Translations under genes and position numbers: made by a program
Assembly (NCBI GenBank): GCA_965215755.1
Contig: OZ244119.1
Location: 4,302,117-4,366,116, forward strand
Reading direction: 5' to 3'
DNA: 64,000 bases
Source: Hyphomicrobiaceae bacterium
Lineage (GTDB): Bacteria; Pseudomonadota; Alphaproteobacteria; Rhizobiales; Hyphomicrobiaceae
Notes under the pieces: generated by a model
What the model was told of the DNA's origin: nothing
The model's database searches: none
What the model saw: the letters and a program-made list of their open reading frames with translations, nothing else
Shown here: one piece after another, positions 40,465-58,632 of the stretch
Layout: each line of letters begins with the position of its first letter
Numbering within the stretch: position 1 is the stretch's first letter

Positions 40465-40860
40465 ATGCCGGACATCATAGGGACTTGGCATCTAATCCAT
40501 GCTGTGGCTTTTGACACAGACGGCAACTCACTTCCAGCTCCCTATAGCGGTGAGGCTGCCATGGGACGCGTCACGTTCAGTCGCGACGGGCGGATGATGG
40601 CCGTTCTCTGCGATGGGCGCACCGAGCTTCCTCCTGGGGAAGCGCGTGAGTACACCTCCTACTGCGGAAACTACCAATTCGACGGCAAGACACTCGTAAC
40701 CCGTGTCGATGCCGCCTCGGATAAGGATCGCATGGGAACAGATCAAGTCAGAGGCGTCCATTTCGACGGCGAGCGGATGGTTCTTCGGCCACCCACGAAG
40801 GCATACGGTGATACAGTCCAGCAACGCGAATTGACTTGGGAAAAGATCGCGGACGTTTAG
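40465..40860 (+). CDS. Lipocalin-like small protein
   Basis: 131 aa. The N-terminal IIGTWHLI and the later YCGNYQFDGKTLVTRVD fit the bacterial lipocalin-like domain pattern, an assignment from memory. Confidence 0.55.
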   Translation: MPDIIGTWHLIHAVAFDTDGNSLPAPYSGEAAMGRVTFSRDGRMMAVLCDGRTELPPGEAREYTSYCGNYQFDGKTLVTRVDAASDKDRMGTDQVRGVHFDGERMVLRPPTKAYGDTVQQRELTWEKIADV

Positions 40861-40921: not shown

Positions 40922-42319
40922 CTACGTCACGACGACCGGTTGAAGTTCTTCAAGCATCCAGCGAGCATGTGAGGTCATACGGGCGTCTTCGTGCTGTTGA
41001 CCGATGAGCTGAACCCCGACTGGAAGACCACCGACAGCCAACAGTGGGACGTTGACGACAGGCGCAAACAGCATAGAGCTTGGGTAATTGAACACCGCAT
41101 CACCGGTTGGCCTTGCTGCCATCGGCTTGCCAGGTTTGTCGCCCAACCACTCCGGAGCCGGACCTGGGCAGGACAGCGTCAGCATCGCATCCGCCTTGCG
41201 TGCGATCTGTCTATGGACAGCCTGAGCCTGATCGCGCTCCAGCAGCCGACTACGATAATCCGCGGGCGTCATCGCTTCCGCCCTTTCAAGGATCGCCATG
41301 GCTCTTGCGCTTAGACCACCACCCTTCTCTTCTACGATGTTGCGCTGGTACCAGCGGTTCTCCCACCCCGTGATCTGTGCGCAGATCGCGCTGGCGTTGG
41401 CAATGCTCTGCTCAATCAATTCGACTTCGGGATCATTGTGTCGGTCAAGCAGTTCAATACCCAGCGCTTCAAGCTGCTCTCGAAATGCCGCGAATGCTTT
41501 CCTGCTATCGTCATCCAGTCGTGACCATCCCTCGGTCTCCATGATGATCAATCGTTGCGGCTTGATGGACTGCGGTGTCGACGCTGGTCCGGCTAACGGT
41601 AGACAACCGCGATCGCCACCCGCACGTGTCGCAATCTCGATGGCTGCTTGCCACATATCCTGAACACTGCCGGCATGGATGCCATGGGTGCTCATGCTGG
41701 TGGCCATTCGTTCACCGCGATTGATGCCCCCCTGCGTCGGCTTAAGCGAGACATTGCCACAAAACCCTGACGGCCGGATGATAGATCCGCCCACTTGGCT
41801 GCCAATGGCTGCCGGCATCATGTGTGCCGCAACAGCTGCCGCCGACCCTGATGATGAACCACCTGGTGTTCGCGTGGCGTCAAACGGGTTTGTCGTTGGG
41901 CCCGGATGCGATCCGCCCAGTTCCGCTGTGACCGTTTTCCCGAATATGACGGCACCCGCCTGACGCAGCGCCCATACCGCTGCATTGTCGCGCTTCGGAA
42001 AATTGCCTTTCAATGCCTCACAGTTCATCTCTGTTGGCATTTCTCGGGTCTCGAGGAGGTCCTTGATCCCGATCGGCATCCCGTCAATGGCTGACAAGGG
42101 TTTGCCTGCCTTATAGCGCTCCGTGCTGGCATCGGCCGCAGCGCGGGCCGTTTCCTTATTGAGGTGAGCAAGAGCCTGGACCGTTGCCTCGCAGGCATCG
42201 ACCACGGCAAGACACCGTTCAAGATAGTCACGTGGCGTGTCGTCACCAGAGTGGAAGCTGGCCACTGCATCGTAGAATGTCAGCTGCTTAAATGTTGTCG
42301 GATCATAGTTGCCGGGCAT
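40922..42319 (-). CDS. Amidase-signature family amidase, copy 3
   Basis: Contains GMPIGIKDLL and TPGGSSSGSAAAVAA. ATG 42319 (MPGNYDPTTF...) lies 28 nt after the upstream amidase stop. The track ORF extends to 42439. Confidence 0.9.
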   Translation of the reverse strand: MPGNYDPTTFKQLTFYDAVASFHSGDDTPRDYLERCLAVVDACEATVQALAHLNKETARAAADASTERYKAGKPLSAIDGMPIGIKDLLETREMPTEMNCEALKGNFPKRDNAAVWALRQAGAVIFGKTVTAELGGSHPGPTTNPFDATRTPGGSSSGSAAAVAAHMMPAAIGSQVGGSIIRPSGFCGNVSLKPTQGGINRGERMATSMSTHGIHAGSVQDMWQAAIEIATRAGGDRGCLPLAGPASTPQSIKPQRLIIMETEGWSRLDDDSRKAFAAFREQLEALGIELLDRHNDPEVELIEQSIANASAICAQITGWENRWYQRNIVEEKGGGLSARAMAILERAEAMTPADYRSRLLERDQAQAVHRQIARKADAMLTLSCPGPAPEWLGDKPGKPMAARPTGDAVFNYPSSMLFAPVVNVPLLAVGGLPVGVQLIGQQHEDARMTSHARWMLEELQPVVVT

Positions 42320-42347
42320 GTTTTTTTTCACTCTCAACGATAATGAC

Positions 42348-43709
42348 CTAACCCAGGTCAGGTTTGGCAAATGGACCACGGATGTTTTCGAAGGCCTGCC
42401 CAATTCGCAAGGCCAACGGATCATCAAATCGACGAACAACGATCTGCAGTGCTGTCGGAAGCCCGGAGGACGTCAAATTGATCGGCACTGTCAATGCAGC
42501 CAGTTCCAGATAATTGACGAAGCGCGTCAGGATGGACATCAGCATAACGCTTTCGTCAACCTCAGCGATCGGGATAGCCGGCATCGGAATGGTCGGCAGA
42601 ATGATCGCATCGATATTGTCGATAACGCTCTCGAACTCGCGAATAGCTATTGAGCGTGCGCGGCGGATGCGAACGAGTTCGGCTGCTGTTATGGTCTTCC
42701 CATTGCCAAAGCGAATGCGATTGGGTTGGCCTAATTTTGAATTCGGATCTTCGACCAGGTCAGCATAAGTTGCATACGACTCGGATGATGACACCAGTCC
42801 GCTCAACCTTTGATAGGATGGAAAGTCAAGTGGCAGTTCGGTCTTTGTGATCGTTGCGCCGGCATCCTGCAGATGTTGGACCGCGACCTCGAATGCGTCG
42901 GACATTTCGCTTGTCAGATAAGGCGTATCTCTCAGATCCAAACGTGCAAGGCGCAAACCATCTACTCCACGATGGAGCTGTCGAACCGGGCACGGAAAGT
43001 TATGACCAAGTGTCGTTGGATCGTCATTGTCCGCCCCTTGCATCGCGGCCAACATATGAGCTGCAAGTTCGACGTTAGCGGTGAGTGGACCGACGGTGTC
43101 GAGCGTTTCTGAGAGCGGCGTCACACCGGTCCGGCTCACCAAGCCAATCGAGGACTTATGGCCAACGCAGCCGCATAGCGCTGCGGGAATGCGGACTGAG
43201 CCACCCGTATCCGTTCCAAGGCCGGCGGCAACGAGTCCTGATCCAACAAGAACTCCAGTCCCGCTTGATGAACCGCCTGGAACGCGCGGCGTTGACATGT
43301 CCCACGGATTGACCGGTGTGCCGACCGTCTCGTTTGTGCCCCAGCTACCGATGGCAAACTCGACTGTGTTGGCCTTGGCGACAGGTATGGCGCCTGCCGC
43401 CCGCAGCTTCGTGACGACCGGTGCATCCCTGGCGGCCGCGCCGTTCTGCGCCCGGGTCAATGAGCCCGACTTCGTCGGGACACCGGCGACATCAATGATG
43501 TCTTTCACCACGAACGGCAGGCCATGAAGCGGACCGAGGGTTCCGTTCTGCGCGCCGCGCTGATCGCAATGGTGGGCATCTGCCAGTGCTGCAGCATCAA
43601 GCCTTCCAGCAACAGCATTAAGTTTGTCGCTGTGCCGATCAAGTCCATCCAAGGTTTTGCGCACGTCGGCTTCAGCCTGGCCAATTTCGGGGACGCCTGC
43701 GACTGCCAT
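42348..43709 (-). CDS. Amidase-signature family amidase, copy 4
   Basis: Contains GLPFVVKDII and VPGGSSSGTGVLVGSG. The track ORF (to 44039) overlaps the upstream gene. ATG 43709 (MAVAGVPEIG...) gives 453 aa and a 31-nt spacer. Confidence 0.85.
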   Translation of the reverse strand: MAVAGVPEIGQAEADVRKTLDGLDRHSDKLNAVAGRLDAAALADAHHCDQRGAQNGTLGPLHGLPFVVKDIIDVAGVPTKSGSLTRAQNGAAARDAPVVTKLRAAGAIPVAKANTVEFAIGSWGTNETVGTPVNPWDMSTPRVPGGSSSGTGVLVGSGLVAAGLGTDTGGSVRIPAALCGCVGHKSSIGLVSRTGVTPLSETLDTVGPLTANVELAAHMLAAMQGADNDDPTTLGHNFPCPVRQLHRGVDGLRLARLDLRDTPYLTSEMSDAFEVAVQHLQDAGATITKTELPLDFPSYQRLSGLVSSSESYATYADLVEDPNSKLGQPNRIRFGNGKTITAAELVRIRRARSIAIREFESVIDNIDAIILPTIPMPAIPIAEVDESVMLMSILTRFVNYLELAALTVPINLTSSGLPTALQIVVRRFDDPLALRIGQAFENIRGPFAKPDLG

Positions 43710-43740
43710 TCTTTCGATCCACTCTCGCTCTGGTTCTTGT

Positions 43741-44379
43741 CTAATAGATTGTTTGTTTGAGACGGTCGGGATAATTGCGATCATACTCATCACTATCGAA
43801 GTCTTGGCTGAGCGCCGAGATGATCTTGCCCGTTGACGGGAGTTCCGTCCGTGCAATCTGGCTTTCAACCTGCCAGAGTTTCGAGCGGACCAGAGCCTTC
43901 GGACATTGGAAATAGATCCTATCAACCTTGAACAGGATAACGGTGGCCGGCGCCTTACCCTGCATCTCAAATGACTTGCACAACTCTGGTTCGGTGACGA
44001 TATAGCCTCGACCATTGATGCGGATCGCCTCGCCGACACCGGGAATCAGAAACAACAGAGAGGCGCGCGGATCGCCGACAAGATTGCGCAAGTTGTCTAT
44101 TCGGTTATTGCCACGACGGTCCGGCATGGCGACCGTGTGCTTGTCGAGCACCCGCACAAAACCTGGGGGATCGCCACGCGGTGAGCAATCAAGTCCGTCA
44201 GGCCCAACCGTCGCCAGGACGGCAAATGGCGACTTCTCGATGAACGCCCTATAGTGATCGGAGATGTAGTCGATCTCTTTGACTAACGATGCGGGGCTGG
44301 CCGCACCATAGAGATCTTCCAACTGAGCCAGCGTTGCCACGTGATGGTCATTGTAGGCTCCAAGTTGCGGTGCGCTCAT
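43741..44379 (-). CDS. PPOX-class (pyridoxamine 5-prime-phosphate oxidase-like) FMN-binding protein
   Basis: 212 aa. The blocks FAVLATVGPDGLDCSPRGD and ASLLFLIPGVGEAIRINGRG are typical of the split-barrel PPOX family. An AGGAG lies 6 nt upstream of the ATG. Confidence 0.75.
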   Translation of the reverse strand: MSAPQLGAYNDHHVATLAQLEDLYGAASPASLVKEIDYISDHYRAFIEKSPFAVLATVGPDGLDCSPRGDPPGFVRVLDKHTVAMPDRRGNNRIDNLRNLVGDPRASLLFLIPGVGEAIRINGRGYIVTEPELCKSFEMQGKAPATVILFKVDRIYFQCPKALVRSKLWQVESQIARTELPSTGKIISALSQDFDSDEYDRNYPDRLKQTIY

Positions 44380-44435
44380 TCTTGTCTCCTGCCTTTCGGC
44401 TTGTGTCAGGCCGATTTTAAGATGGTACTATCAGA

Positions 44436-45446
44436 CTACTTATTGCGATCGGGGCCATAGTTCATTTTTCGGAACCAGGTCATGTACTCGACATAGGTAA
44501 TGGGATCATACTTCGGCGGATTGTCTGGTCCTGTGCAGGTTGGCAGACACGACATCTCATAATCTGCCCAGCAATCAAAAAAGAATGGCAAGGCATAACG
44601 TTCTTCGCCGGTTCGGTTCACGACGCGATGCGGTGTGGCCAAAAACCGATCATTGGTCCAACGGCGGAGCATGTCGCCGCCATTGACAAGAAAGGCGCCA
44701 TCGTTACTAGGCGCGTCGATCCACTTGCCACTTGGACCACGGACTGACAGGCCGGGAACCTTATTGGGAGCCAGCAAGGTCATGAAGCTCGTGTCGGTAT
44801 GAGGTGCCAAACCGAACTCGTTGTCCTCGACGACCTTCTGTGGCGGATAGTGAGACATGCGCAGCTTATACATCGGCTTGGCGAATGCTTCGTCGAAATA
44901 ACCGGCTGGCAAATCAAGCGCAAGAGCATAAAGCGGCACCAGCTTTAAAGCCAAGGATTCCAGCTGGTCCATGTATTCCAGGCAGGTTGCTCGAAACCCC
45001 GGCAGATCACCAGGCCATTTGTTAGGTGTTCGAAATGCCTTGCCGGCGAGAACATCCGGATCATTGGCATCGAGGTCTCTGGCGACAAAGAAGGCTTCAT
45101 TCACATTCGGCTTGTTGTTCTGATTGAGCTCGGAGTGGCGGGTGGTACCGCCGCGCATTGGCAAATAACCGATGTTGTATTCATTGAGTTTCAGCTTGAG
45201 CTTGTCGTCGAGCGGTTGTTCGTGAAAGCGCTTGGCAGCTGCAAAGGTATCGTCGATCAATTGCTGCGGTACGCCGTGGTTGGTGATGAAGTAGAAACCA
45301 ATGTTCTCGAAGGCATGGCGCACCGCATCAGCCGCCCTCGCTTGTGCGCCCGGCTCCTCTGCCAGGTAAGGTCCGAGATCTATGACGGGAATTTCATCGG
45401 TGGCGTCTGCACGAATTGGCGCCAGGGAAGGAGCCGGACTTGCCAT
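44436..45446 (-). CDS. Isopenicillin-N-synthase-family 2OG/Fe(II) oxygenase
   Basis: Contains IPVIDLGPY (the N-terminal DIOX_N pattern), the HTDTSFMTLL (HxD) motif, ATPHRVVN (distal His) and RYALPFF. A strong TAGGAGG SD is present. Confidence 0.85.
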   Translation of the reverse strand: MASPAPSLAPIRADATDEIPVIDLGPYLAEEPGAQARAADAVRHAFENIGFYFITNHGVPQQLIDDTFAAAKRFHEQPLDDKLKLKLNEYNIGYLPMRGGTTRHSELNQNNKPNVNEAFFVARDLDANDPDVLAGKAFRTPNKWPGDLPGFRATCLEYMDQLESLALKLVPLYALALDLPAGYFDEAFAKPMYKLRMSHYPPQKVVEDNEFGLAPHTDTSFMTLLAPNKVPGLSVRGPSGKWIDAPSNDGAFLVNGGDMLRRWTNDRFLATPHRVVNRTGEERYALPFFFDCWADYEMSCLPTCTGPDNPPKYDPITYVEYMTWFRKMNYGPDRNK

Positions 45447-45549
45447 GAGTACCTCCTATCATGCTGTTTCTGTCGAAAGCTCTTTCAGGCTTTGCGTTGC
45501 CTGCAAATATGTCGACTCGCGACCAGTCTCTCGCCCCGACACCACCAGC

Positions 45550-46833
45550 CTAACTGACCTCCTGCACCAGCCAGCCTGTCATCACAGCCGCCGCACTTAG
45601 GAAGTCATCAATCTCCATCGCTTCGTGGGGGTTGTGGCTGCCATTCTCATTGCGCACGAACAGCATTGCTGTTGGTACACCGGCCGCCGTAAATGTTGCT
45701 GCATCGTGTGAGGCGGGGCTGGCGAGTGGCATTGTTGGAACACCCAACCGGTCAGCAGCAGCCGTCAATGCCGAATAAACCTCTGGGTTTGATGGTGCCA
45801 CCGGCGCAGAAGCGCGCTGCCCCAGCGCAATCGAGACTCCACGTTTGGCTTCGATGTGCTTGACGCGCTCCAACAACTCGTTTTCAAGTTCGTCGAGATG
45901 CTCTTGATCGTAGGCGCGGACATCCAGGCTCAATGACATTTCGCCCGGAACAATTGTAAGAGCGTGCTCGTCGGGATTGGTGTGAAACCGTCCGATGGTG
46001 AAAGCCATGGGACGGCCTGCAGCATCGTTCTTCTGCCACATCTCATCGAGCGCCAATGCAAAGTCGCTTGCGGCGAGGGCTGCATCCCGACGGAACCTAC
46101 GCGGCAGACCGACATGCGCATATTCACCTTTGATGTGAATGTTAGGATAACGAAAGTTACCCGGTACGCCGGTTCCGATCGCTGCCGGAAAACCTGCTTC
46201 GATCAACTGGGGTGCTTGTTCAATGTGGATCTCAACGAACGCCCGCAGGTCTTTGGCATTCAGCCATGGTACGCCAGCTCGCACCTTGTCAACATCTGCG
46301 CCGCAGTCAGCCATGTGGTCAGCCAGCGCCCGGCCTGTATCAACGCGCGGAGCCTCAAGTGAACCATCGGGCAGCATTCCAAACGCGGTACGACTACCGA
46401 TGTATGAGACTTGAAACCACACACTTTCTTCAGCCCGGATGGCCATTGTCGTGACATCGCACGACGGCACGATGCCGAGTTTCTGCAGCACCCGCTGGGC
46501 AACAAGCCCACCGACGACCCCTGCTGCACCGTCAAAGTTGCCGCCACGCTTAACAGAGTCGAGATGTGATCCCATCATGATCCCGGGAGTGCTTTCCGTC
46601 TGCCCAGGTAGCTTCATGTAAAGATTGGCGCCATGATCGTACTGAAGCTCCAAACCCATCTCGCGTGCACGATCCTCAACGACGCGATAGCCAAATTGTT
46701 CGCCGGGCCCAAACGTATCGCGGGTGACGCCTTCGACGTCCTTACTGCCTTCGCGCAATTCATCGAAGAGGTCAGATACGAATTGCTTCTCTTGCTGGAC
46801 TGCTGAGAGAATGTCGGCAGGCGGTCGCGTCAT
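45550..46833 (-). CDS. M20-family amidohydrolase of the N-carbamoyl-amino-acid / allantoate amidohydrolase type
   Basis: MGSHLDSVKRGGNFDGAAGVV matches the GSHLDT/S-V-x-x-GG-x-FDG motif of carbamoylases. 427 aa. The SD overlaps the stop codon of the upstream asparaginase gene. Confidence 0.85.
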   Translation of the reverse strand: MTRPPADILSAVQQEKQFVSDLFDELREGSKDVEGVTRDTFGPGEQFGYRVVEDRAREMGLELQYDHGANLYMKLPGQTESTPGIMMGSHLDSVKRGGNFDGAAGVVGGLVAQRVLQKLGIVPSCDVTTMAIRAEESVWFQVSYIGSRTAFGMLPDGSLEAPRVDTGRALADHMADCGADVDKVRAGVPWLNAKDLRAFVEIHIEQAPQLIEAGFPAAIGTGVPGNFRYPNIHIKGEYAHVGLPRRFRRDAALAASDFALALDEMWQKNDAAGRPMAFTIGRFHTNPDEHALTIVPGEMSLSLDVRAYDQEHLDELENELLERVKHIEAKRGVSIALGQRASAPVAPSNPEVYSALTAAADRLGVPTMPLASPASHDAATFTAAGVPTAMLFVRNENGSHNPHEAMEIDDFLSAAAVMTGWLVQEVS

Positions 46834-46844
46834 CGGCGTTTCTC

Positions 46845-47849
46845 CTAGTATTCAGCGAAAATGCGGCTTAGTTCATTCACGTCGCTTGTCTTACTCAGGG
46901 CAACCATCAGCAAGATGCGCGCCTTTTGAGGATTGAGCGTATCAGCAGAGACAAAGCCCCGTTCTTTGAGCTTCACTCTGTTTGGCACACGACCTGAGCC
47001 GGCGCGGTTGGATTGCACAACGACAACGCCATCTTTGATGACCTTGTCGAAGGCCTGATCTTGGTGCGGAGTTAAGAGCCCCGGTGCGAAGCCTGCCGAG
47101 ACCAAGCCTTTCGCGCCGGCTGCCACGTATGCCTCAATCGCGACACCGTCGCTGCCGCCATAACAGGGAACAACGTCAACGCGCGGCAGGTCGGTTACAC
47201 CAGACATATCGAATTCGGTATCCGGCATGCGGCGGCGGAGAGGGGCACGATAGTAATGCACACCATCACCATCGACATGACCAAGCACGCCAAAGTCCGG
47301 GCTGCGGAAGGTTTGCATTCTCAATGTCGATGTTTTGGTGACATCACGAGCTGCCTGGATTTCGTCATTGAGCATCAGCAGCGCACCCATCCCACGGGAT
47401 GCAGGGTCGGCGGCGGTCCGTGCGGCGTTCAGCAAGTTAATTGCCGCATCGGTCGAAATCCCCGAAGCGGGACGTTGCGCACCGACGACCACAACCGGTT
47501 GTTCGATCTTCAATGTCAGGTTCAGGAAATAGACCGTTTCCTCGGCTGAGGCCGTTCCATGAGTCACGACAAAGCCGGCCAACGAAGGGTCATCGGCCGC
47601 GGCCTTGGTGATCGTTTTGTTGATCTCCAGCCATTCCTTGGGCCCGATGTGGGTGCTACCGACGGCCTTGAAACGAATAGGCACCGGCTCGACAACTTGT
47701 TTGACCAGGTCAAATTTTTCGATCAGTTGATCGACTTCCAGTTTGGAGCCACTGTCAGGATAGTCGACGAGATCCAATGCATCGCGTCCGATTGATGAGA
47801 TCGTCCCTCCTGTCCCAATGAATGCGACCTTTGGTTTGTTACCTGCCAT
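46845..47849 (-). CDS. Type II (AnsB-like) L-asparaginase/glutaminase homologue, no signal peptide evident
   Basis: Contains VAFIGTGGTISS (Thr nucleophile motif), DVTKTST (Lys) and a C-terminal LNPQKARILLMVAL...IFAEY very like E. coli AnsB. The second signature reads HGTAS instead of HGTDT. ATG 47849 is preceded by a GGAG. Confidence 0.85.
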   Translation of the reverse strand: MAGNKPKVAFIGTGGTISSIGRDALDLVDYPDSGSKLEVDQLIEKFDLVKQVVEPVPIRFKAVGSTHIGPKEWLEINKTITKAAADDPSLAGFVVTHGTASAEETVYFLNLTLKIEQPVVVVGAQRPASGISTDAAINLLNAARTAADPASRGMGALLMLNDEIQAARDVTKTSTLRMQTFRSPDFGVLGHVDGDGVHYYRAPLRRRMPDTEFDMSGVTDLPRVDVVPCYGGSDGVAIEAYVAAGAKGLVSAGFAPGLLTPHQDQAFDKVIKDGVVVVQSNRAGSGRVPNRVKLKERGFVSADTLNPQKARILLMVALSKTSDVNELSRIFAEY

Positions 47850-47888
47850 GTCTCTCACTCCGTGCCTATATTTTGTGTCTTGTTCGGA

Positions 47889-48893
47889 TCAGCGTTGTTC
47901 GACGTCAAACTCTGATACTTCGATTTCTATAGCTTGTAGCAGCGCCTCAACCCAAGACTCACTCAGGTGGCGTCCAATAAAGACGATACGTGTGCGGCGA
48001 TCGTCCGATGGCCACCGGTCCAGCCATGTCGGTGGATGAAAGACATGCTGGACGCCATGGATGACAGCTGGTTGCTCCGGCGTTTCGGAAATCTGCACCA
48101 GCCCCTTCAAGCGGAGCAGGTTCTCACCACAATGATCTGCCAAAGCTTCAAGAAATAGAGTCAGCGCAACGGCCGCGACCGGTCGTGACCGAATGAGGGT
48201 GAATGTCGAGATTGCCCCACTAGTATGTCCGGGAGCCGTTGCTGCAATAGTCGGCAAATCCTCAAAGTTCAGCAGCTTCGCCGCTGGCTCTTTGCCTTCA
48301 TCACTGAACATGACCGTCGGTTGCACATTGCCATGGGAGGCGGTCATGCAGTTCGCATTGGGATTAAGGCTCCTGACAGATGCTACGAGTGCGCCGTGCT
48401 CCTCGCTCAGTAGATCCATCTTCGTCAGGAGTAATTGATCTGCTATCGCTATCTGTCTGGCTGCTTCCGGCTCCCGGGAAATCGTCTGCGCCCCATTGAC
48501 GGAATCGACCACGGTGACAACGCGGTCCAATTGGAAGTTGCAGGCGGCTGTTTCATCGACCATTAAGCCCTGCAGGATCGGGATGGGATCGGCCAGCCCA
48601 CTCGTTTCAATCATAACCCTTTTGAAGGGGGTAATGGCTCCGGTCTGTCGGCGCGTCCAGAGATCGTCCAGGGTCTCGACCAGGTCGCCGCGCATCTTGC
48701 AGCACAGGCACCCCGTCTTTAATGTCACGAGATCTTCGTCGCTCGTCTCGATGAGTTCATGGTCCAGGCCAACTTCACCGAACTCATTGATGATCACCGC
48801 TGTGTCACCGTATTCGGGATCAGCCAGAACCTTCTTAAGGATCGTTGTCTTCCCGCTCCCGAGGTAGCCGGTTATGACCGATACCGGGATCAT
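47889..48893 (-). CDS. COG0523-family (CobW/YjiA-like) metallochaperone GTPase
   Basis: The Walker A is ITGYLGSGKTT, the metal-binding CxCC is GCLCCKM, the motif LLTKMDL is NKxD-like, and a CobW_C-like tail is present. The ATG overlaps the TGA of the upstream 107-aa ORF. Confidence 0.9.
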   Translation of the reverse strand: MIPVSVITGYLGSGKTTILKKVLADPEYGDTAVIINEFGEVGLDHELIETSDEDLVTLKTGCLCCKMRGDLVETLDDLWTRRQTGAITPFKRVMIETSGLADPIPILQGLMVDETAACNFQLDRVVTVVDSVNGAQTISREPEAARQIAIADQLLLTKMDLLSEEHGALVASVRSLNPNANCMTASHGNVQPTVMFSDEGKEPAAKLLNFEDLPTIAATAPGHTSGAISTFTLIRSRPVAAVALTLFLEALADHCGENLLRLKGLVQISETPEQPAVIHGVQHVFHPPTWLDRWPSDDRRTRIVFIGRHLSESWVEALLQAIEIEVSEFDVEQR

Positions 48894-49213
48894 GACGGCA
48901 AGCCTGGCAGCGGAGCGATTGTCAATTGATAGGGTTGATAACCAGGTGCCAGGTTCTGCCGAACGATGCGCAGAACGCCAACGACGGATGCTGCTGTTCG
49001 TTTTCGTCCGCTTGTTTCAACGACCCACCGAAACGGCATGCCTTTCGGTGCGCGGTCTATTGTCAGAACCACGTCACCTTCTGCGCGAATGATGATGTGA
49101 TCGTCAATGCCATCGCGATGCACGCTGTGTGCGCGAGACCACATCGTGAGTGAGGAACCGATAAGCTTCTCCAGTGCATCCACCAACGCATCACTCATTG
49201 TGCCGGGGCTCAT
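48890..49213 (-). CDS. Orphan 107-aa protein, translationally coupled on both sides
   Basis: ATGA overlaps occur at 49210-49213 (with the dihydropyrimidinase stop) and 48890-48893 (with the COG0523 start). I recognise no motif. The protein has no Cys and three His. It is supported as coding mainly by its operon geometry. Confidence 0.5.
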   Translation of the reverse strand: MSPGTMSDALVDALEKLIGSSLTMWSRAHSVHRDGIDDHIIIRAEGDVVLTIDRAPKGMPFRWVVETSGRKRTAASVVGVLRIVRQNLAPGYQPYQLTIAPLPGLPS

Positions 49214-50637
49214 AGTGCTGGACCTGCAATAATATCGGCAGGGATTTTCCGCTTCAGATGTTGACCGTCATTGGTTTCTCCGAAGAATTCCTTGCCGTCC
49301 ACCATGACCTTACCGCGCATAATCGTTGTTTCGGGCCATGCGAAGATATCATGCCCTTCCCAGGGCGTGTAATCGGTTTCATGTAGCTTGGACGCCGTGA
49401 TCTTTCCGCGACGGTTTGGGTCCAGAATTGTTATGTCGGCATCACTGCCGGCCGCAATTGCGCCTTTGCGCGGGTAGAGCCCCATTACCTTTGCTGCGTT
49501 GGTCGAAACCAGATCAACATATTGGCTCAGCGAATACTGTCGGCGATGAACCATTTCGGTGTACATCACTGCCAACCGCGGTTCGACGCCGGAATTCCCT
49601 CCCGTCGTATCATCGATCCGATTGCCGAGAGTTTTTTCTTTCAATGTGCAGCAAAGTTCGTCCGTCGCGACGCAGTTGATATCACCCGTCAATGTTCCGT
49701 CCCACAGCGCTTTTTGATCCTCGGCGGACTTGAGTGAGGGATAGGTGTGATAGATCTGACCGTTCGGCCGCTTATAGTCTTCAGCATTGTAAAGCATGTA
49801 TTGATGTAGGGTCTCTCCGTAGATCGGCATGCCTTTCGCACGTGCTTCAGAGATGGCCTTGACGCCAGTCGCAGCACTCACATGCATCATGTAGAGAGCA
49901 GTCCCTGGCACATTCTCTGCAAGCCTCAGGATTCGACGGAAACTGAGATCTTCCGACAGCGCATTGTGGGCCTCATTCAGATATTCGAATCCAACACGAC
50001 CTTCGCGAATTAACTTATCGTACATGTGCATGACGATGTCGTGGTCTTCGGCATGGATCACACCAAGTCCACCTTCATCGGCAAGCACCTGAAAGGCTTC
50101 CCAGATGTCTCCGAAATCGATCATGCGCCCCGTACGACCGGGGAGAATGTTGGTTGTGAATATCTTCAGTGTCGGATGACCGGCCTGGATGGCCTCGGCG
50201 AGCTGTCCTTTGAAGGTATGCGGTGGCTCACTATGGAGCATGATGTGATAGGCGTAATCGCAATAGCTACGACCTTTGAAGTCCTTATCTCGCGCCTCAA
50301 TGGCTTCAAGTGCCGTGTGCTCTTCGCGCCAATACGCGAAATCAATCAACGTGGTTGTGCCACCGAACAAAGCGGCCTTGCCGACCTGATCGGGACCGGC
50401 CGTGATCATTGTCTCCCCGTCCGGTTTAATCCAGGGATGATGCATGTGGACGTGGGGATCGATACCGCCAGGCATGACAATCTTACCGGAAGCGTCCACG
50501 GTCCGCGTTGCAGCCGTTTCATCGAGAGTGCCCGGAGCGGCGACCGCGGCGATCGTCTCGCCTTTGACCGCAACGTCGAAGTTTCCAACCCCTTGCGGGG
50601 TCACGACCTCGCCACCTCGAATAATCAAATCCAGCAT
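49210..50637 (-). CDS. Dihydropyrimidinase / D-hydantoinase (cyclic amidohydrolase)
   Basis: Contains GGIDPHVHMH (HxH metal ligands), TLKIFTT (carboxylated-Lys context), VIHAEDHD and ATDELCCT-type late motifs. 475 aa. A strong GAGGAGGAGG SD is present. Confidence 0.9.
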   Translation of the reverse strand: MLDLIIRGGEVVTPQGVGNFDVAVKGETIAAVAAPGTLDETAATRTVDASGKIVMPGGIDPHVHMHHPWIKPDGETMITAGPDQVGKAALFGGTTTLIDFAYWREEHTALEAIEARDKDFKGRSYCDYAYHIMLHSEPPHTFKGQLAEAIQAGHPTLKIFTTNILPGRTGRMIDFGDIWEAFQVLADEGGLGVIHAEDHDIVMHMYDKLIREGRVGFEYLNEAHNALSEDLSFRRILRLAENVPGTALYMMHVSAATGVKAISEARAKGMPIYGETLHQYMLYNAEDYKRPNGQIYHTYPSLKSAEDQKALWDGTLTGDINCVATDELCCTLKEKTLGNRIDDTTGGNSGVEPRLAVMYTEMVHRRQYSLSQYVDLVSTNAAKVMGLYPRKGAIAAGSDADITILDPNRRGKITASKLHETDYTPWEGHDIFAWPETTIMRGKVMVDGKEFFGETNDGQHLKRKIPADIIAGPAL

Positions 50638-50813
50638 GATGTCGGCCTCCTCCTCTTAGCATCTAAGCAGATTGCAATGCCTGCCGATACCGCTGGACGA
50701 TCGATTTGCTGATTTCTTGGTCCTCCGGCCGATGCTGGACGCGCGCAAGCGAATTGGGTTCAATACGGTAATCCGTGCAGGATGCACCACTCTCACGTCA
50801 TGGGATAAGGCTT

Positions 50814-51713
50814 ATGGAACGCGCGACAACCAAACTTCGTCACTTACTTGAGACGCACGAGTTCCTCTATTGGCCCTCGCTGTATTATCCTCTTGCCGCC
50901 CGTGCGGCCGAGGACATCGGCATCGAGAGCGCGTACGTCGGTGGCTATGTTACTGGTGGATCGAAAGCTGTCTCGGAGCCGTTGCTGACAATGGACGAGC
51001 AAGTCGGGCTTGCAGGAGAGATTGCACGTTCCGTCCGAATTCCGATCGTCGCTGATGCCGGCGCCGGATTTGGAGAACCGTTGCATTGCATGCGGACCGT
51101 TCGCGAGTTCATTCACGCAGGTGTTGCTGGTATCCATATTGAGGATCAGCTTTATCCCAAGCGTGCGCACTATCATAAGTATGTGGCGCATGCGATTCCC
51201 GCCGAAGATCTGGCGCTTAAAATTCGCTACGCTAGCCGGGAAAGGGCACGAATTGATCCGGACTTCGTGATCATCGTGCGGACAGACACCTGCCGCTTCG
51301 AAGGCCTTGACGAAGCCATCCGCCGCATCAACATGGGCGCTGACGAAGGCGCCGATATGGGTCTGCTGTTCCCGCGCAATCTTGATGACGCCAAGCGTGC
51401 GCCTGCGCTCTCGAAGGTGCCTTTGGTTTATGTTCAGAGCCGGGGCAATCGTGATGGCCGGCCGCTCTTTTCAAACACCGAGCTGAAAGAGATGGGCTAC
51501 AAGGCGTGCATCGATGCTCAACTTTGGATGACGGTCAGTTTTCATCACGCCAGGAATGCGCTGCAGGAAGTTTATCAGACTGGCAGTTACACAGGCATGA
51601 GCGATGACGAGAACATCGCAACACGCCAAGCCATCGAAGATGCTATCGGCCTTGATGCATTCTATGAAATCGAGGAAGAGACTGTCGAAGATAATAAGTG
51701 GGGCAAACGCTAA
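50814..51713 (+). CDS. Isocitrate lyase / PEP mutase superfamily protein (non-canonical active-site loop)
   Basis: Contains IPIVADAGAGFGE and GVAGIHIEDQLYPKRAHYH. The family KRCGH loop lacks its Cys here. ATG 50814 is preferred over the track start 50775. Confidence 0.8.
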   Translation: MERATTKLRHLLETHEFLYWPSLYYPLAARAAEDIGIESAYVGGYVTGGSKAVSEPLLTMDEQVGLAGEIARSVRIPIVADAGAGFGEPLHCMRTVREFIHAGVAGIHIEDQLYPKRAHYHKYVAHAIPAEDLALKIRYASRERARIDPDFVIIVRTDTCRFEGLDEAIRRINMGADEGADMGLLFPRNLDDAKRAPALSKVPLVYVQSRGNRDGRPLFSNTELKEMGYKACIDAQLWMTVSFHHARNALQEVYQTGSYTGMSDDENIATRQAIEDAIGLDAFYEIEEETVEDNKWGKR

Positions 51714-51752
51714 CAGTGTTACTGTTCAGCATGGACAGGAAAGATCACCACC

Positions 51753-53096
51753 GTGACACAGACCAATTCTTCGCGACGCCTGCACCTCGGCGCGTTTATG
51801 CGGCCGATCAGCATTCATACCGGTGCCTGGCGCTATCCCGGTGCATTTCCAGACGCGAATTTCAACTTCCAGCATATTGTTCGCTTCACCAAAAAACTCG
51901 AGCAAGGCAAGTTCGATGCATTCTTCATGGCGGACCATTTGGCACTCCTCAATATGCCGATGGAGGCCTTGAAGCGTAGCGCCACCGTAACATCGTTTGA
52001 GCCCATGACACTGTTGTCTGCACTTGCCGCGGTGACGGACCACATCGGTCTGATTGCGACAGGCTCAACAACCTACGATGCGCCCTATCATGTCGCGCGC
52101 CGATTTGCGTCCCTGGACCACATTAGTGGCGGACGCGCGGCCTGGAATGTTGTGACGACGTCCAATCCAGACGCCTCTATGAATTTTGGTCACAACGAAC
52201 AGATGGAGCATGACGAACGTTATCGCCGTGCGCGCGAGTTCTACGACGTTGTCACCGGCCTTTGGGACAGCTTTGATGACGATGCGTTTCCGCGCGATAT
52301 CGGGTCCGGCGTCTTCACGGACCCAGACAAGTTGCATGTGCTGGACCACAAGGGAGATTACTTTGATGTCCGTGGCCCGTTGAACATCGCAAGACCGGTG
52401 CAAGGATGGCCGGTGATCGTGCAGGCCGGCGCTTCCGAAGCCGGGCGGCAGTTGGCAGCCGAGACAGCCGAAGCCATCTTTGCGTCTGTTCGCACTTTGC
52501 AGGATGGACAGGCATTCTATTCGGACATCAAGAGCCGGATGCAGAAGATCGGCCGTAACCCAGACCATATGAAAGTGCTGCCCGGCTGCCTCGTAGTTGT
52601 CGGCGACACCGATGAAGAGGCGCGACAGAAGCGGCTCCTTCTGGATAGCAAGGTGCACTACGAGAGCGCCATCGCCTCACTCTCGATTGCGCTCGGTGTC
52701 GACGCGTCAGAGTTTGATCCCGATGGACCACTTCCGAGCAATATCCCGCAGACCAACACGAGCCACAGCGGTCGGGAGCGTGCTATGAAGCTGGCTGCAG
52801 AAGAAGGCCTGACTGTGCGCCAGCTTGCACAACGATTTGGCGGCTATTCCGGCCTTGCCCTTGTTGGCACACCACAGACCATTGCTGATCAGATGGAAGA
52901 ATGGCTAATGGAGCGTGGATGCGATGGCTTTAACGTCATGTTTCCCTATCTGCCGATGGGACTAGATGATTTCGTGGATCGCGTTGTTCCGGAGCTGCAG
53001 CGGCGGGGAATCTTCCGGACGGAATACGAAGGTTCAACATTGCGGGAGAATTTGGGACTTCCGCGTCCTCCTAGTCGCTATGCTGGAAAGACATGA
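51753..53096 (+). CDS. LLM-class flavin-dependent monooxygenase (NtaA/SnaA/DszA family)
   Basis: 447 aa. The N-terminal LHLGAFMRPISIHTGAWRYPGAFPDANFNFQHIVRFTKKLEQGKFDAFFMADHLA is characteristic of this family. GTG start. Confidence 0.9.
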   Translation: MTQTNSSRRLHLGAFMRPISIHTGAWRYPGAFPDANFNFQHIVRFTKKLEQGKFDAFFMADHLALLNMPMEALKRSATVTSFEPMTLLSALAAVTDHIGLIATGSTTYDAPYHVARRFASLDHISGGRAAWNVVTTSNPDASMNFGHNEQMEHDERYRRAREFYDVVTGLWDSFDDDAFPRDIGSGVFTDPDKLHVLDHKGDYFDVRGPLNIARPVQGWPVIVQAGASEAGRQLAAETAEAIFASVRTLQDGQAFYSDIKSRMQKIGRNPDHMKVLPGCLVVVGDTDEEARQKRLLLDSKVHYESAIASLSIALGVDASEFDPDGPLPSNIPQTNTSHSGRERAMKLAAEEGLTVRQLAQRFGGYSGLALVGTPQTIADQMEEWLMERGCDGFNVMFPYLPMGLDDFVDRVVPELQRRGIFRTEYEGSTLRENLGLPRPPSRYAGKT

Positions 53097-53104
53097 GTTG
53101 TGGC

Positions 53105-54100
53105 TCACACCACTTTCACAACCTGCTTTCCATAGTTTCCTCCGCTCAGCATGTTGATCAGCGCTGCAGGGGCAGTCTCAAATCCATGTGAAACCGTTTC
53201 ACGATATTTCAATTTGCCGTCGCGCCACCATTGCTGCAGCTGCTCCAACGCAACGTCGCGGCGGTCCAGGTACGAACCAATTCGAAAACCCTGAATCTTT
53301 ATCGATCTATCGAGAAGCAGATGGACGTTGCGTAGGCCCGCTGGCCTATCAGTATTGTATTGTGAAATCTGACCACAAATCGGGATGCGCGCGCCCTCCT
53401 TCGTCTGGTCCAGCACCGCCTCCAGGATCTCACCGCCGACATTGTCATAATAGATGTCGACGCCGTCTGGTGCGGCTTGGGCCAACGGCTCATCTATCGG
53501 CCCGGCTTTGTAATCAATGCAATCATCAAAGCCGAGGTCATCAATGACATGGCGGCACTTCTCGGCGCCGCCAGCAATTCCGATAACACGGCAGCCACTA
53601 ATCTGAGCGAGTTGGCCAACGGCACTCCCGACGGCACCTGCAGCTGCTGAAACGACGACCGTATCGCCTGATTTCATTCCTGCGATATCGTAGAGCCCGA
53701 CGAACGCTGTTGCACCTGATTGCCCTACGATGCCAAGACTTAAGGAGAGTGGCTGTAGGTCAGGCGCCAGTTTGCGTAAGTGGTCGCCTTTGAGCACGAC
53801 ACGTTCGCGCCAGCCGAATTCGCTTTGTACTGCATCGCCAATTTTGAAGTTCGGATGGCGGCTCTCAAGAACGACACCTGCACCGCGACCAATCATTGTT
53901 GCACCCGGTGTCAGTTGATACTGTGGCCGTGCACCGCCCATAGCGCGGCGCATGTATGGGTCGATGGATAAGACGTGCGTCTCCACAAGGACATCACCAT
54001 CGCCCGGTTCTGGAGTTGCGACGTCAACGACTTCGAAGCAATCCTCGGTTGGTGGGCCTGCAGGCGGCCGCACGAACTCAATCTCTCGATGATTGCCCAT
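53105..54100 (-). CDS. NADP-dependent medium-chain reductase (YncB/CurA / alkenal-reductase-like)
   Basis: The cofactor motif is AAAGAVGSAVGQLAQISGCRVIGIAGGAEK. The protein has no zinc-ligand pattern. 331 aa. Confidence 0.85.
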   Translation of the reverse strand: MGNHREIEFVRPPAGPPTEDCFEVVDVATPEPGDGDVLVETHVLSIDPYMRRAMGGARPQYQLTPGATMIGRGAGVVLESRHPNFKIGDAVQSEFGWRERVVLKGDHLRKLAPDLQPLSLSLGIVGQSGATAFVGLYDIAGMKSGDTVVVSAAAGAVGSAVGQLAQISGCRVIGIAGGAEKCRHVIDDLGFDDCIDYKAGPIDEPLAQAAPDGVDIYYDNVGGEILEAVLDQTKEGARIPICGQISQYNTDRPAGLRNVHLLLDRSIKIQGFRIGSYLDRRDVALEQLQQWWRDGKLKYRETVSHGFETAPAALINMLSGGNYGKQVVKVV

Positions 54101-54241
54101 CTGGCAATCCCCCCAATTTCACAGCTGATAACTGATGGCATGCCGCTTGTTTCAATGGCATCGGACTGCCCTTATAGGATCCGAGATGTATTAGGACCGT
54201 ATAACCGCCGTCTACGCAATAGTGCGCAATCGGATTTGGGG

Positions 54242-55390
54242 ATGAGCATGAGTGCACCACTCGAAGGCATTACCGTACTGGAAATGGGATCAAGTCTGGC
54301 GGGGCCCTACGGTGCGCGGTTGTTGGCCGACTTCGGTGCCCGGGTGATCAAGGTCGAGGCTCCGGGGGGCGGGGATGCTGCGCGCAGTTGGGGCAAGGAA
54401 ACACTCGCCGGCACCAGTGCAACTTACCAGGCTTTGAATTTCGGCAAACGCTCGATTGTCGTGGATTTCAAGAACGATGTGGACGTGGGTGTCCTCAAGA
54501 AGTTCATCGCGGCGGAAGCCGATGTCGTCCTGCAAAACCTTCGCCCCGGGATCGCCGATGAACTTGGGCTTGGTCCAACTGACGTGACACAACTCAATTC
54601 GCGGATCATCTATTGCAACATCTCCGCATTCGGGCGGTCTGGTCCCTATGCTCAGATGCCGGGCTATGACCCGCTCATTCAGGCATTTTGTGGCATCGTC
54701 GATCTCACGGGGCCGGCGGACGGCAAGCCCGCACGTGTCGGCGTTCCGATCATTGATCTCGGGACAGGACTCTGGGCCGCCCTCGGCGTCATGGCAGCGC
54801 TTCAGGCCAGGGCGCGAACCGGCAAGGGCAGCATCGTGGATGCGGCGATGGCAGATACGGCGATGGCCTATCAGACCGTATCACAAGCAACCATCGAAGC
54901 CGGCGGGCCGGTACCGAAACGCTCGGGCCTCACCGGTCCACTTTTGGTTCCGAACACGGGTTATCAAACCTCTGACGGGCTGCTCATCGTCACGGTCGGT
55001 ACAGACCGACAGTTCGAGAAGCTTTGTGATGTGATTGGTAAGCCCGAGCTAGCACATGACGAACGGTTTCGAACGAACATCGCTCGTATGGAACATGAGG
55101 GTGTCTTGCGGGAGGAGTTGGAAGCAGTCTTCCGCAATGGAACAAGAGCCCACTGGAGCAAATTGCTGAACTCGGCCAACGTGCCCAACGCGCCCATCCA
55201 GAACGCCACTGAAGTTCTTGGACACGAGCATACCCAAGCCGCCGGGATAGTGAAGCCCGCCCCGGACGGCTCATTCGGACTAGTGGCGAATGCTCTCAAA
55301 CTCGACGGTCAACGTCCTGGTTTTGAGAGCCTTGCACCGGAACTCGGAGAGGCAACAGACGACGTACTCGCCAAGTATCGAGACGGCTGA
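54242..55390 (+). CDS. Family III (CaiB/BaiF) CoA-transferase
   Basis: LEGITVLEMGSSLAGPYGARLLADFGARVIKVE is the family-typical N-terminus, and GYDPLIQAFCGI carries the catalytic Asp context. The track ORF starts at 53975 but overlaps the reductase gene. ATG 54242 gives 382 aa. Confidence 0.85.
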   Translation: MSMSAPLEGITVLEMGSSLAGPYGARLLADFGARVIKVEAPGGGDAARSWGKETLAGTSATYQALNFGKRSIVVDFKNDVDVGVLKKFIAAEADVVLQNLRPGIADELGLGPTDVTQLNSRIIYCNISAFGRSGPYAQMPGYDPLIQAFCGIVDLTGPADGKPARVGVPIIDLGTGLWAALGVMAALQARARTGKGSIVDAAMADTAMAYQTVSQATIEAGGPVPKRSGLTGPLLVPNTGYQTSDGLLIVTVGTDRQFEKLCDVIGKPELAHDERFRTNIARMEHEGVLREELEAVFRNGTRAHWSKLLNSANVPNAPIQNATEVLGHEHTQAAGIVKPAPDGSFGLVANALKLDGQRPGFESLAPELGEATDDVLAKYRDG

Positions 55391-55750
55391 ATTTTTGGAG
55401 AGAATGGGTGGGGATCGGGCCAGCCCGTTGCAAAGAGCTAGGACCAACAGCTGGCCCGACCGTCAGCTCGCGGGGATAAGCCGACAGTCAACAGAGTGGC
55501 CAGCGATGATGCCGAAAATATGTCTCGGCTAAATCGACGAATTCGCTTTGTTTTTTGGGGCCCGATGGCGAAGTTTGACGGCTTTGGGACACGAAACGAT
55601 AAGGAAAAAATGGAATCTCGAGTTGCTTTAGAAGCCCCTTTTCATTTGTTCGTCGTTGGATTTCTCAGCCTGTGATAACCAGACGGACGGGTGCTATTTC
55701 CTTTTGCCCATCAATTGATATGCTCCCCGGAATTCATCAGCGGGGCCTTA

Positions 55751-56947: not shown

Positions 56948-57220
56948 TGATTGCTTCCGTTGACCAATCACCCTTTACAGCGCGCTGGCGCAGTGTCGTG
57001 AGACTGACTTACAGGACCTTTTCGAGGACACCACTCCCAGTTACCAGGGCGCACCATTCCAATTGCCTATCCGATACATTGTGCGATCTCAGCCAAACGT
57101 CTGTGCAAGGCTTGACCTCAAGGCGCCGACCGGCAACGTTGGCGACTTAAGATAGCGGGTTCGGTTTATCACCCACAAATCACGCGATGCGGATTTTACG
57201 AAGCGCAAGGAGTGCCGACA

Positions 57221-58498: not shown

Positions 58499-58632
58499 CG
58501 CCACGCGCAGCCGGAGAGCCTATCGGCACAACTCACAACCCGGTTTATCGAGATCGGTATTCCACCTGACATTTTCCTTCGAGCCGCACTGCAATCGTGA
58601 TGCGGCTCCCTCAATAACTCCAGCTGGGACCA

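Follow-up and report, generated by a model that had tools for sequence, protein, structure and literature searches.

Organization of the gene cluster

The stretch analysed here, called the window throughout, is a segment of 64,000 nucleotides (nt) from the genome of a Hyphomicrobiaceae bacterium (assembly GCA_965215755.1, contig OZ244119.1, positions 4,302,117 to 4,366,116). On its minus strand, from 50637 down to 40922, a mechanical listing of open reading frames (ORFs) revealed nine co-directional genes. The first three, encoding a hydantoinase-like cyclic amidohydrolase, a small protein and a COG0523 GTPase, are referred to as the trio, and they are followed by an asparaginase-like gene, an M20-family gene, an oxygenase, a PPOX-type flavoprotein and two amidases (Table 1). 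The families and the spacers (-4, -4, 39, 11, 103, 56, 31 and 28 nt) had already been given in a first-pass annotation of the sequence, and were confirmed by the ORF listing, Pfam and NCBIfam. The third spacer is 30 nt if a GTG start is used.

The asparaginase-like ORF was called by machine at 46845-47858, and the ATG at 47849 is the likelier start, giving a protein of 334 residues as in the related locus L004. The two amidase ORFs also extend upstream in the machine call; starts at 43709 and 42319 give proteins of 453 and 465 residues, and the L004 orthologues have 456 and 465. None of the cluster proteins reached the cut-off of a function-specific (equivalog) NCBIfam model. Three broad subfamily models were passed, TIGR01879 and TIGR04025 in the cluster and TIGR03860 in a neighbouring NtaA/DmoA-family monooxygenase. 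Terminator-like and promoter-like signals inside the cluster were as frequent as expected from shuffled sequence, so no excess was found. The 103-nt spacer between the M20 and oxygenase genes contains no hairpin plus T-run, and the same spacer is only 25 nt long in L004. The nine genes are regarded as a putative single transcription unit.

Table 1. Coordinates of the cluster genes, the conserved upstream element and flanking features in the window.
Feature	Position	Strand	Basis or remark
Dihydropyrimidinase/hydantoinase-like binuclear-metal cyclic amidohydrolase, 475 residues	49210..50637	-	Pfam Amidohydro_1/3
Small protein, 107 residues	48890..49213	-	no Pfam or NCBIfam family; 4-nt overlap with each neighbour
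COG0523 (G3E) GTPase	47889..48893	-	Pfam cobW and CobW_C
Asparaginase-like amidohydrolase, type II fold	46845..47849	-	Pfam Asparaginase, N- and C-terminal domains
M20 hydantoinase/carbamoylase-family amidohydrolase	45550..46833	-	TIGR01879 above cut-off
IPNS-family 2-oxoglutarate (2OG)/Fe(II) oxygenase	44436..45446	-	DIOX_N and 2OG-FeII_Oxy
PPOX-type flavin mononucleotide (FMN) flavoprotein, MSMEG_1061 family	43741..44379	-	TIGR04025 above cut-off
Amidase-signature amidase 1	42348..43709	-	Pfam Amidase, 293 bits
Amidase-signature amidase 2	40922..42319	-	Pfam Amidase, 213 bits
Conserved element CAATCTGCTTAGATG	50660..50674	-	15 nt; distance to the amidohydrolase start codon about 20-35 nt
Lipocalin_5 gene, convergent	40465..40860	+	Pfam; 76% identity to the L004 and L005 copies, which have the same place
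Neighbour set beyond the divergent intergenic region	50775..62354	seven genes +, oxidoreductase -	Pfam, NCBIfam

Sequence features of the amidohydrolase

The closest solved relative of the amidohydrolase is the D-hydantoinase 1gkp (239 bits). All six metal ligands (HxH, Lys, His, His, Asp) align with those of 1gkp and are conserved in 14 family members. The scores against function-specific models were low: 335.9 bits for TIGR02033, the dihydropyrimidinase/D-hydantoinase equivalog (cut-off 393.25), and 330 for PRK13404 (cut-off 647). The allantoinase model gave 219 bits against 336 for D-hydantoinase, both below cut-off.

A clear difference lies in the loop after the metal-bridging lysine. Tyr155 of 1gkp, which follows the carbamylated lysine, is catalytic in hydantoinases. 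The 1gkp segment FLS----YKNF was aligned to FTTNILPGRTGRM, and tyrosine was found in the loop of 0 of the 14 family members. Where hydantoinases have this residue, the family carries a four-residue insertion, NILPGRTGRM, with conserved arginines. Three further substrate-loop motifs, YHTYPSLK, ATDELCC and DTTGGNSGVEPR, are invariant in the family (relatives 60-93% identical) and differ from those of hydantoinase. The sub-cut-off score together with the replacement of the catalytic tyrosine suggests that the protein represents a distinct subfamily and is not a plain dihydropyrimidinase.

Annotated hydA/dht genes of dihydropyrimidinase (DHPase) among 181 plasmid records are about 33% identical to the amidohydrolase. 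The plasmid collection held no match above 44% identity, and its best match, from Arthrobacter, is unannotated and has no linked COG0523 gene. The family is a large one, as the best 120 matches listed in the protein search alone showed 76-100% identity and nearly all were 473-478 residues long. Such relatives are annotated as dihydropyrimidinase by JGI, a label which is probably wrong. The view of the first-pass annotation that neither the hydantoinase nor the carbamoylase is a plain orthologue of the reductive pyrimidine pathway thus stands, as both fall below the equivalog cut-offs, the catalytic tyrosine is absent and identity to DHPase is about 33%.

In the ATDELCC motif (window 49600-49620 region) two cysteines directly follow the metal-binding aspartate in 13 of 14 family members, and the canonical hydantoinase has DHC in this place. 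The adjacent pair might have a role in metal hand-over from the CxCC motif of the GTPase.

The small protein and the COG0523 GTPase

The small protein belongs to no Pfam or NCBIfam family. A search of 5.8 billion proteins gave 20 close clusters, and a profile search among 1.84 billion representatives gave 128 clusters at 50% identity, almost all of about 100 residues. The conserved motifs are LL..SL..W and G.LR..R, with their tryptophan and arginine residues. Conserved cysteine or histidine is absent from the family, and because of this the protein is unlikely to be a metal site itself. Its predicted structure (pLDDT 84) is an alpha-beta5-alpha arrangement of a helix, five strands and a helix, for which no fold match in the PDB was obtained at E<=0.001.

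The GTPase possesses both domains of its family (PF02492, 155 bits; PF07683, 79 bits). The motifs GYLGSGKTT (Walker A), GCLCC (CxCC) and LRLKGL (RxKG finger) are present in its translation. RxKG is an invariant motif of the C-terminal domain of COG0523 proteins (PMC13001444). The closest PDB match is YjiA (141 bits), and the scores for YjiA (186 against 361 bits), CobW (132 against 332) and ZigA (116 against 600) are all below the equivalog cut-offs. A role of the small protein as a missing arginine finger of the GTPase was considered and ruled out, as the GTPase has its own RxKG.

In four profile matches the small protein is fused N-terminally to a cobW GTPase (P0171, 481 residues; P0240, 449 residues; P0206; P0211). 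P0171 and P0240 are full-length fusions, and their GTPase parts are 48-49% identical to the window GTPase, the same level as that of the linked GTPases in loci with the order small protein, GTPase, enzyme. Their linkers comprise about 35 and about 87 residues, and this difference in length argues for independent fusion events.

The small protein is proposed to act between the COG0523 GTPase and the amidohydrolase, as an adaptor or co-chaperone. Both proteins are most likely metallocentre-assembly factors and not pathway steps.

Linkage of the trio in other genomes

About 40 loci were inspected, comprising 27 metagenome loci and about 12 others. They were compared by tblastn of the window proteins, and those seeded with the enzyme (L018, L019 and the metagenome scan) also by iterative hidden Markov model search. 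Hyphomicrobiaceae or alphaproteobacterial metagenome-assembled genomes are the source of all contigs found from the small protein and of the eight loci taken from species-representative genomes. The trio was found in every locus seeded with the small protein, a sample biased towards it by its selection. The linkage figure rests on the enzyme-seeded loci with informative flanks only. Among these a COG0523 gene adjoins the amidohydrolase in 18 of 20, down to 61% enzyme identity, with L030/L037 and L032 as the exceptions. All 18 also contain a homologue of the small protein. Among 112 neighbouring ORFs the commonest Pfam family was cobW, with 10 members.

The trio occurs in two permuted orders. 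Enzyme, small protein, GTPase is the order at loci with at least 71% enzyme identity and also in L031 and L034, and small protein, GTPase, enzyme is that of the group with 61-65% enzyme identity. The linkage therefore survives rearrangement. In the window the three genes are joined by 4-nt overlaps.

Recurrent neighbours at the trio loci are TctC and TRAP carboxylate transporters, Asp/Glu/hydantoin racemase, the asparaginase-like and M20 genes and a PEP-mutase/ICL-family lyase. In L028 the small protein, GTPase, enzyme, asparaginase-like gene, racemase and TctC stand in a row, followed by an oppositely oriented flavin adenine dinucleotide protein and a PEP-mutase-like lyase. A canonical hydantoin set adjoins the trio as separate genes in L019 (12909-19623). 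It consists of a second hydantoinase (31% identical), an Asp/Glu/hydantoin racemase, a CN_hydrolase-type (D-)carbamoylase and an amino-acid ATP-binding cassette (ABC) transporter. This arrangement fits a chemistry of the trio enzyme which is related to that of the canonical hydantoin set, yet distinct from it.

A separate observation concerns L035 (3-7909), where the trio is preceded, at a distance of a few kb, by a cobW-like gene and cobN (cobalt chelatase). The genome thus has a second, distinct COG0523 beside cobalamin genes, possibly a hint about the metal.

In the literature covered, to which the 2021 review of COG0523 networks did not belong, hydantoinase or dihydropyrimidinase was nowhere linked to COG0523/cobW. 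Haas et al. 2009 (PMC2770081) make no mention of COG0523 with hydantoinase or dihydropyrimidinase.

The asparaginase-like and M20 enzymes

The asparaginase-like protein scored 288.1 bits against TIGR00520, below the cut-off of 314.3. It retains the nucleophilic TGGT motif and the lysine. In the alignment with 1wsa, HGTDT is changed to HGTAS, GSQ to GST (Q59 to T) and E283 to a basic residue. In E. coli AnsB the alpha-amino group of the substrate is held by Gln59, Asp90 and Glu283. The replacement of all three points to a substrate that has no free amine. The protein is probably not an L-asparaginase. The change to Ala of the Asp in the Thr-Lys-Asp triad is fixed in this group, as HGTA[ST] was found in 15 of 15 linked asparaginase-like copies, down to 44% identity. 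The replacements at the Gln59 and Glu283 positions are conserved as well. Copies of the subfamily lie in the window (46845-47849, minus strand), L023 (2783-3793), L026 (10560-11567) and L028 (10489-11469), and the subfamily is always found near the novel amidohydrolase.

The M20 protein scored 242.7 bits against TIGR01879, above its cut-off of 204, and every equivalog, including allantoate amidohydrolase (AllC) and ErtE, was below cut-off. The closest PDB match is the N-carbamoyl-L-amino-acid hydrolase 3n5f; AllC and ureidoglycolate hydrolase are also among the PDB matches, and the best NCBIfam matches include allantoate amidohydrolase subfamilies (318 bits). Assignments of cluster proteins to ergothioneine (ErtD/ErtE), AtzE or allophanate functions were tried and rejected, all being far below cut-off.

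Nested conservation of the cluster

Conservation of the cluster was found to be nested. A five-gene set with the asparaginase-like and M20 genes downstream of the trio is present in L001, L002, L004-L006, L013 and L015. The same two genes are placed before the trio in L007 and L008, and the short contig L011 shows the asparaginase-like gene after the trio and then ends. In three more distant loci the asparaginase-like gene recurs near the trio without M20. The complete nine-gene order was found only in L004, L005 and L006, with proteins 57-93% identical to those of the window, and a convergent lipocalin-like gene follows the cluster there as in the window. L001 and L010 keep the first six genes, with the oxygenase sixth (81% identical), and then the contig ends. 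The last four genes are missing in L002, L007, L013 and L015, though the first five are kept. Divergence is uneven within the trio, the amidohydrolase being by far the most conserved and most widespread of the three. In loci where its identity is 84-93%, the small protein shows 47-62% and the GTPase 51-70%.

The oxygenase, the PPOX flavoprotein and the two amidases are a lineage-specific add-on. The closest PDB match of the oxygenase is 9ovh (183 bits). Homologues of the oxygenase with 78-80% identity occur without the other genes of the cluster in L048 and L049. In L048 the homologue lies beside a 2-hydroxyacid dehydrogenase, in a genome whose five-gene cluster lacks the oxygenase, and in L049 it is accompanied by an oligopeptide ABC transporter, M20, gamma-glutamyltranspeptidase and amidase genes. 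The PPOX protein passes TIGR04025 (260 against 170) and has no solved relative in a sequence search of the PDB. For amidase 1 the AtzE, allophanate and GatA-like models all remained below cut-off, and its PDB matches include GatA, amidase, allophanate hydrolase and biuret hydrolase. Amidase 2 has malonamidase E2 (1obj, 153 bits), a hydrolase of dicarboxylate half-amides, as its closest solved relative. Both translations contain the GGSSSG signature and neither reaches an equivalog.

The possibility, raised with the first-pass annotation, that the order is conserved in no relative was checked, and the order does recur, in L004, L005 and L006, which makes the cluster more than a chance arrangement. 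From the nested conservation and the oxygenase homologues in other contexts it follows that the nine-gene order is real but young, an assembly of modules rather than a single unit. The same two lines of evidence speak against the earlier claim of one nine-enzyme pathway built around the hydrolase.

The upstream element

The element CAATCTGCTTAGATG is conserved in an alignment of the upstream regions of the window, L001, L004, L002 and L013. It occurs once per locus in the same place in eight loci, with variants in L009/L012 and L015. Altogether it is conserved in ten or more loci with differing upstream genes, all of them with the amidohydrolase as first gene, and it is lacking where this gene is internal to a cluster. 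The coordinates elsewhere are 8539-8551 in L002, 8537-8549 in L003, 8543-8555 in L004 and 8525-8537 in L013. The element contains the inverted half-sites ATCT/AGAT, and the window has no second good match to it. It may be a -10 region and/or an operator, and is regarded as a candidate for either.

A sigma-54 promoter upstream of the first gene was rejected, because the GG and GC of GGCAGGCATTGCA stand two bases too close together. In the search for a riboswitch or leader RNA, no Rfam family reached the gathering threshold in the window and the leader gave noise only. Among the window genes that were scanned, none for a transcription regulator was noticed.

Surroundings of the cluster

The scan of window proteins covered ORFs of at least 150 residues between 8.4 and 62.4 kb. 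In this range the reported absence of dihydropyrimidine dehydrogenase, Rut, allantoicase, hydantoin racemase and NCS1 genes held; hydantoin racemase occurs in some distant trio loci only. Beyond the divergent intergenic region lies a neighbour set of a PEP-mutase/ICL-family lyase, an NtaA/DmoA-family FMN monooxygenase, an NADPH oxidoreductase on the minus strand, a family III CoA-transferase, an MFS transporter, a class III aminotransferase and caprolactamase-like HyuA/HyuB. The set is co-conserved beside the cluster in L001 and L004 (75-93% identity), and the PEP-mutase-like gene is also found in L020 (78%) and L028 (60%).

Genes for cleavage of amides and lactams are unusually dense between 9741 and 62354. 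There are three HyuA/HyuB (caprolactamase/oxoprolinase-like) pairs (14423-18122, 29703-33760 and 58633-62354) and five amidase-signature genes, including those at 18261, 38955, 40922 and 42348. Two M20 genes (9741, 45550), an M19 dipeptidase (36879) and two class III aminotransferases beside the Hyu pairs were also found. Against this background of three HyuA/HyuB pairs, five amidases, two M20 genes and one M19 gene, the five C-N hydrolases which the first-pass annotation had stressed in the cluster are less striking.

Two other features of the surroundings were recorded. The CoA-transferase ORF (53975-55390, plus strand) overlaps the end of the convergent oxidoreductase (53105-54100, minus strand), and its real start is probably near 54242 because the Pfam match begins at residue 96. 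A strong negative AT skew (-0.22) at 26001-28000 coincides with the MatE transporter gene and is probably only a matter of codon and amino-acid composition.

Interpretation of the cluster

The cluster is interpreted here as a composite nitrogen-scavenging operon. The amidohydrolase with its own assembly pair would form the core, and the other genes would deamidate a carboxylated cyclic ureide or imide of the C4-dicarboxylate type. We attach about an even chance to this interpretation, and its pathway part is rated below its assembly part. The small protein and the COG0523 gene, formerly counted among nine pathway genes, are taken out of the pathway here, being most likely assembly factors. The earlier statement that no described pathway corresponds to the cluster agrees with our result, as none was found in the literature searched.

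In the proposed scheme the CxCC site of the GTPase would take up the metal, and the link from the GTPase to the apo-amidohydrolase would be made by the small protein. GTP hydrolysis, assisted by the GTPase's own RxKG finger, would then release the metal into the site bridged by the conserved lysine, which is presumed to be carbamylated. Such delivery would parallel that of UreG to urease or of Nha3 to Fe-type nitrile hydratase in logic, not in sequence. The matured enzyme would open a carboxylate-bearing cyclic ureide or imide, for which hydantoin-5-acetate or -acetamide, a dihydroorotate-like ring and a substituted succinimide are candidates. The asparaginase-like enzyme could next hydrolyse the carboxamide of an N-blocked or de-amino product, and the M20 enzyme may remove the carbamoyl group. 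In the lineage of the window the add-on block would widen the substrate range or process half-amides.

The clues point to an anionic, chiral ring of the aspartate/succinate type, since carboxylate transporters, racemase, lyase and the asparaginase-like and M20 genes recur nearby, the loop of the amidohydrolase bears arginines and the asparaginase-like enzyme appears to be blind to the amine. The likeness of amidase 2 to malonamidase E2 was counted as support for a C4-dicarboxylate-type substrate.

Several points weigh against this interpretation. No asparaginase-like or M20 genes were found at the trio loci L003, L009, L022, L025, L027 and, in part, L018, and the two genes are therefore not obligatory partners of the trio. 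The window transporter is of the MFS type and not TctC or TRAP. The more than 7,800 matches of the amidohydrolase at E<=1e-30 (7,850) include generic cyclic-amidohydrolase relatives. The small protein could instead be a subunit of the enzyme or a regulator, and the linkage of the trio could reflect co-regulation under metal limitation. The tie of the GTPase and the small protein to the enzyme is a putative one, read from gene context.

Among the alternatives, the one closest to the first-pass annotation takes the nine genes as one undescribed pathway, with five hydrolases, an oxygenase and a flavoprotein in series which strip every nitrogen from a multi-amide or ureido heterocycle. The conservation of order and tight spacing in L004-L006, with at least six genes in L001, agrees with it, as do the 25-nt M20-oxygenase spacer of L004, the lack of any internal terminator excess and the failure of every cluster enzyme to reach a characterised equivalog. 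It is nevertheless unlikely. Most relatives which keep the first five genes (L002, L007, L013, L015) have no last four, oxygenase homologues with 78-80% identity occur without the other genes, two of the nine genes belong to non-catalytic families and the surrounding 60 kb is rich in unrelated amide hydrolases.

An allantoin route would make the amidohydrolase an allantoinase, the M20 protein an allantoate amidohydrolase and the asparaginase-like protein an enzyme of ureidoglycine or ureidoglycolate deamidation, with the amidases finishing the breakdown. The presence of allantoate amidohydrolase subfamilies, AllC and ureidoglycolate hydrolase among the M20 matches agrees with such a route, and molybdopterin (xanthine-dehydrogenase-type) neighbours were seen in three scanned ORFs. 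Gene associations in its favour come from Barba et al. 2013 (PMC4016543), who described asparaginase-like genes beside allantoinase and, for marine bacteria, asparaginase together with HyuC-like genes, and suggested a role in the deamination of ureidoglycine. Still, the amidohydrolase scores 336 bits as D-hydantoinase against 219 as allantoinase, and neither uricase, HIU hydrolase, OHCU decarboxylase nor ureidoglycolate lyase was found among the scanned window ORFs. The carboxylate transporters and the arginine-rich loop also suit an anionic ring better than neutral allantoin, and we consider the allantoin route quite improbable.

A back-up function under zinc limitation, in which COG0523 and a zinc-enzyme paralogue stand together as in Zur regulons and the other genes are passengers, is judged to be a poor candidate too. 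Its precedent is the finding by Haas et al. 2009 (PMC2770081) of COG0523 genes beside paralogues of zinc enzymes, including a dihydroorotase paralogue, and the window GTPase does bear the CxCC motif. The Zur-linked PyrC paralogue of that study is without zinc ligands, unlike the enzyme here, which keeps all six. Among the scanned window genes there was neither a zinc transporter nor a Zur gene nor a ribosomal-protein paralogue, and CAATCTGCTTAGATG, judged by eye only, could not be recognised as a Fur-family palindrome. What recurs beside the trio are catabolic enzymes and carboxylate transporters.

Ordinary hydantoin or dihydropyrimidine utilisation, by functional Hyu/Pyd orthologues with the missing genes elsewhere, would account for the best family and PDB matches (D-hydantoinase and N-carbamoyl-L-amino-acid hydrolase) and for the JGI label, and is hardly credible in view of the sub-equivalog scores, the absent catalytic tyrosine, the differing family loops, the identity of about 33% to hydA/dht and the canonical set standing separate beside the trio in L019.

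A wider proposal may be added. The trio may be an unrecognised, widespread GTP-dependent system for metallocentre assembly, analogous to that of urease but based on COG0523 with an obligate adaptor, which matures an orphan ring-opening enzyme feeding a non-canonical asparaginase. This proposal is put forward tentatively and is on balance doubtful. Examples of such an orphan activity, as candidates only, are carboxymethylhydantoinase (EC 3.5.2.4) and a carboxy-imide hydrolase. No gene assignment was found for carboxymethylhydantoinase or ureidosuccinase in the literature searched.

Bacterial COG0523 proteins are thought to insert metals, and their clients are mostly unknown. The locus offers a client which is readable from the genome, and the client question becomes directly testable here. 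If the proposal is true, the trio would be the first genetically obvious set of client, adaptor and chaperone for a bacterial COG0523 protein. The asparaginase-like partner represents a distinct, unstudied subfamily. Once the substrate is found, a further way of scavenging organic nitrogen would become known for Hyphomicrobiaceae and other bacteria of soil and water.

Comparison with known systems

The cluster shares with hyu clusters and the reductive pyrimidine pathway an enzyme of the DHPase fold, an M20 enzyme and the logic of ring opening followed by decarbamoylation. It differs from them as its enzyme is without the catalytic tyrosine and carries the arginine-bearing insertion and DELCC, and no racemase, NCS1 or dihydropyrimidine dehydrogenase gene is present in the scanned window. 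The linkage of the enzyme to a COG0523 GTPase and a small protein also separates it from the hyu and pyd systems of the literature searched.

The degradation of cyclic imides by an imidase and then a half-amidase is described in Blastobacter. The presumed DHPase-type ring opening to a dicarboxylate half-amide, which a second amidase would hydrolyse, the closeness of amidase 2 to malonamidase E2 and the putatively amine-blind asparaginase-like enzyme resemble this route as described. The conserved M20 enzyme of the carbamoylase family, which is not needed for imides, sets the cluster apart from it.

In Zur-regulated clusters COG0523 stands, as here, beside a member of the dihydroorotase/cyclic amidohydrolase superfamily (PMC2770081). 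Those clusters show lost ligands and a zinc-uptake context, whereas the present one retains the ligands and has catabolic surroundings.

Urease is a binuclear amidohydrolase with a bridging (carbamylated) lysine, co-encoded with the G3E GTPase UreG and accessory proteins. The trio resembles it in the combination of an amidohydrolase-superfamily enzyme, a G3E GTPase and a small accessory protein, a likeness at the level of the genes and, for the lysine, of its conservation. UreG is related to COG0523 within the G3E family (Haas et al. 2009, PMC2770081). Unlike in urease, the GTPase here is a COG0523 protein with one small partner, which shows no similarity to UreE, UreF or UreD in Pfam and matches no solved fold.

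Fe-type nitrile hydratase has a COG0523 activator (Nha3/P47K), and the Co-type enzyme has a small activator protein. These systems and the present cluster have in common that the operon of the client hydrolase also contains a gene for a COG0523 GTPase or for a small dedicated protein, with amidase genes nearby. Nha3 is among the COG0523 proteins which have been studied (PMC13001444). The fold and the metal site of the client differ from those of the amidohydrolase, and in the trio the GTPase and the small protein are both present and are sometimes fused.

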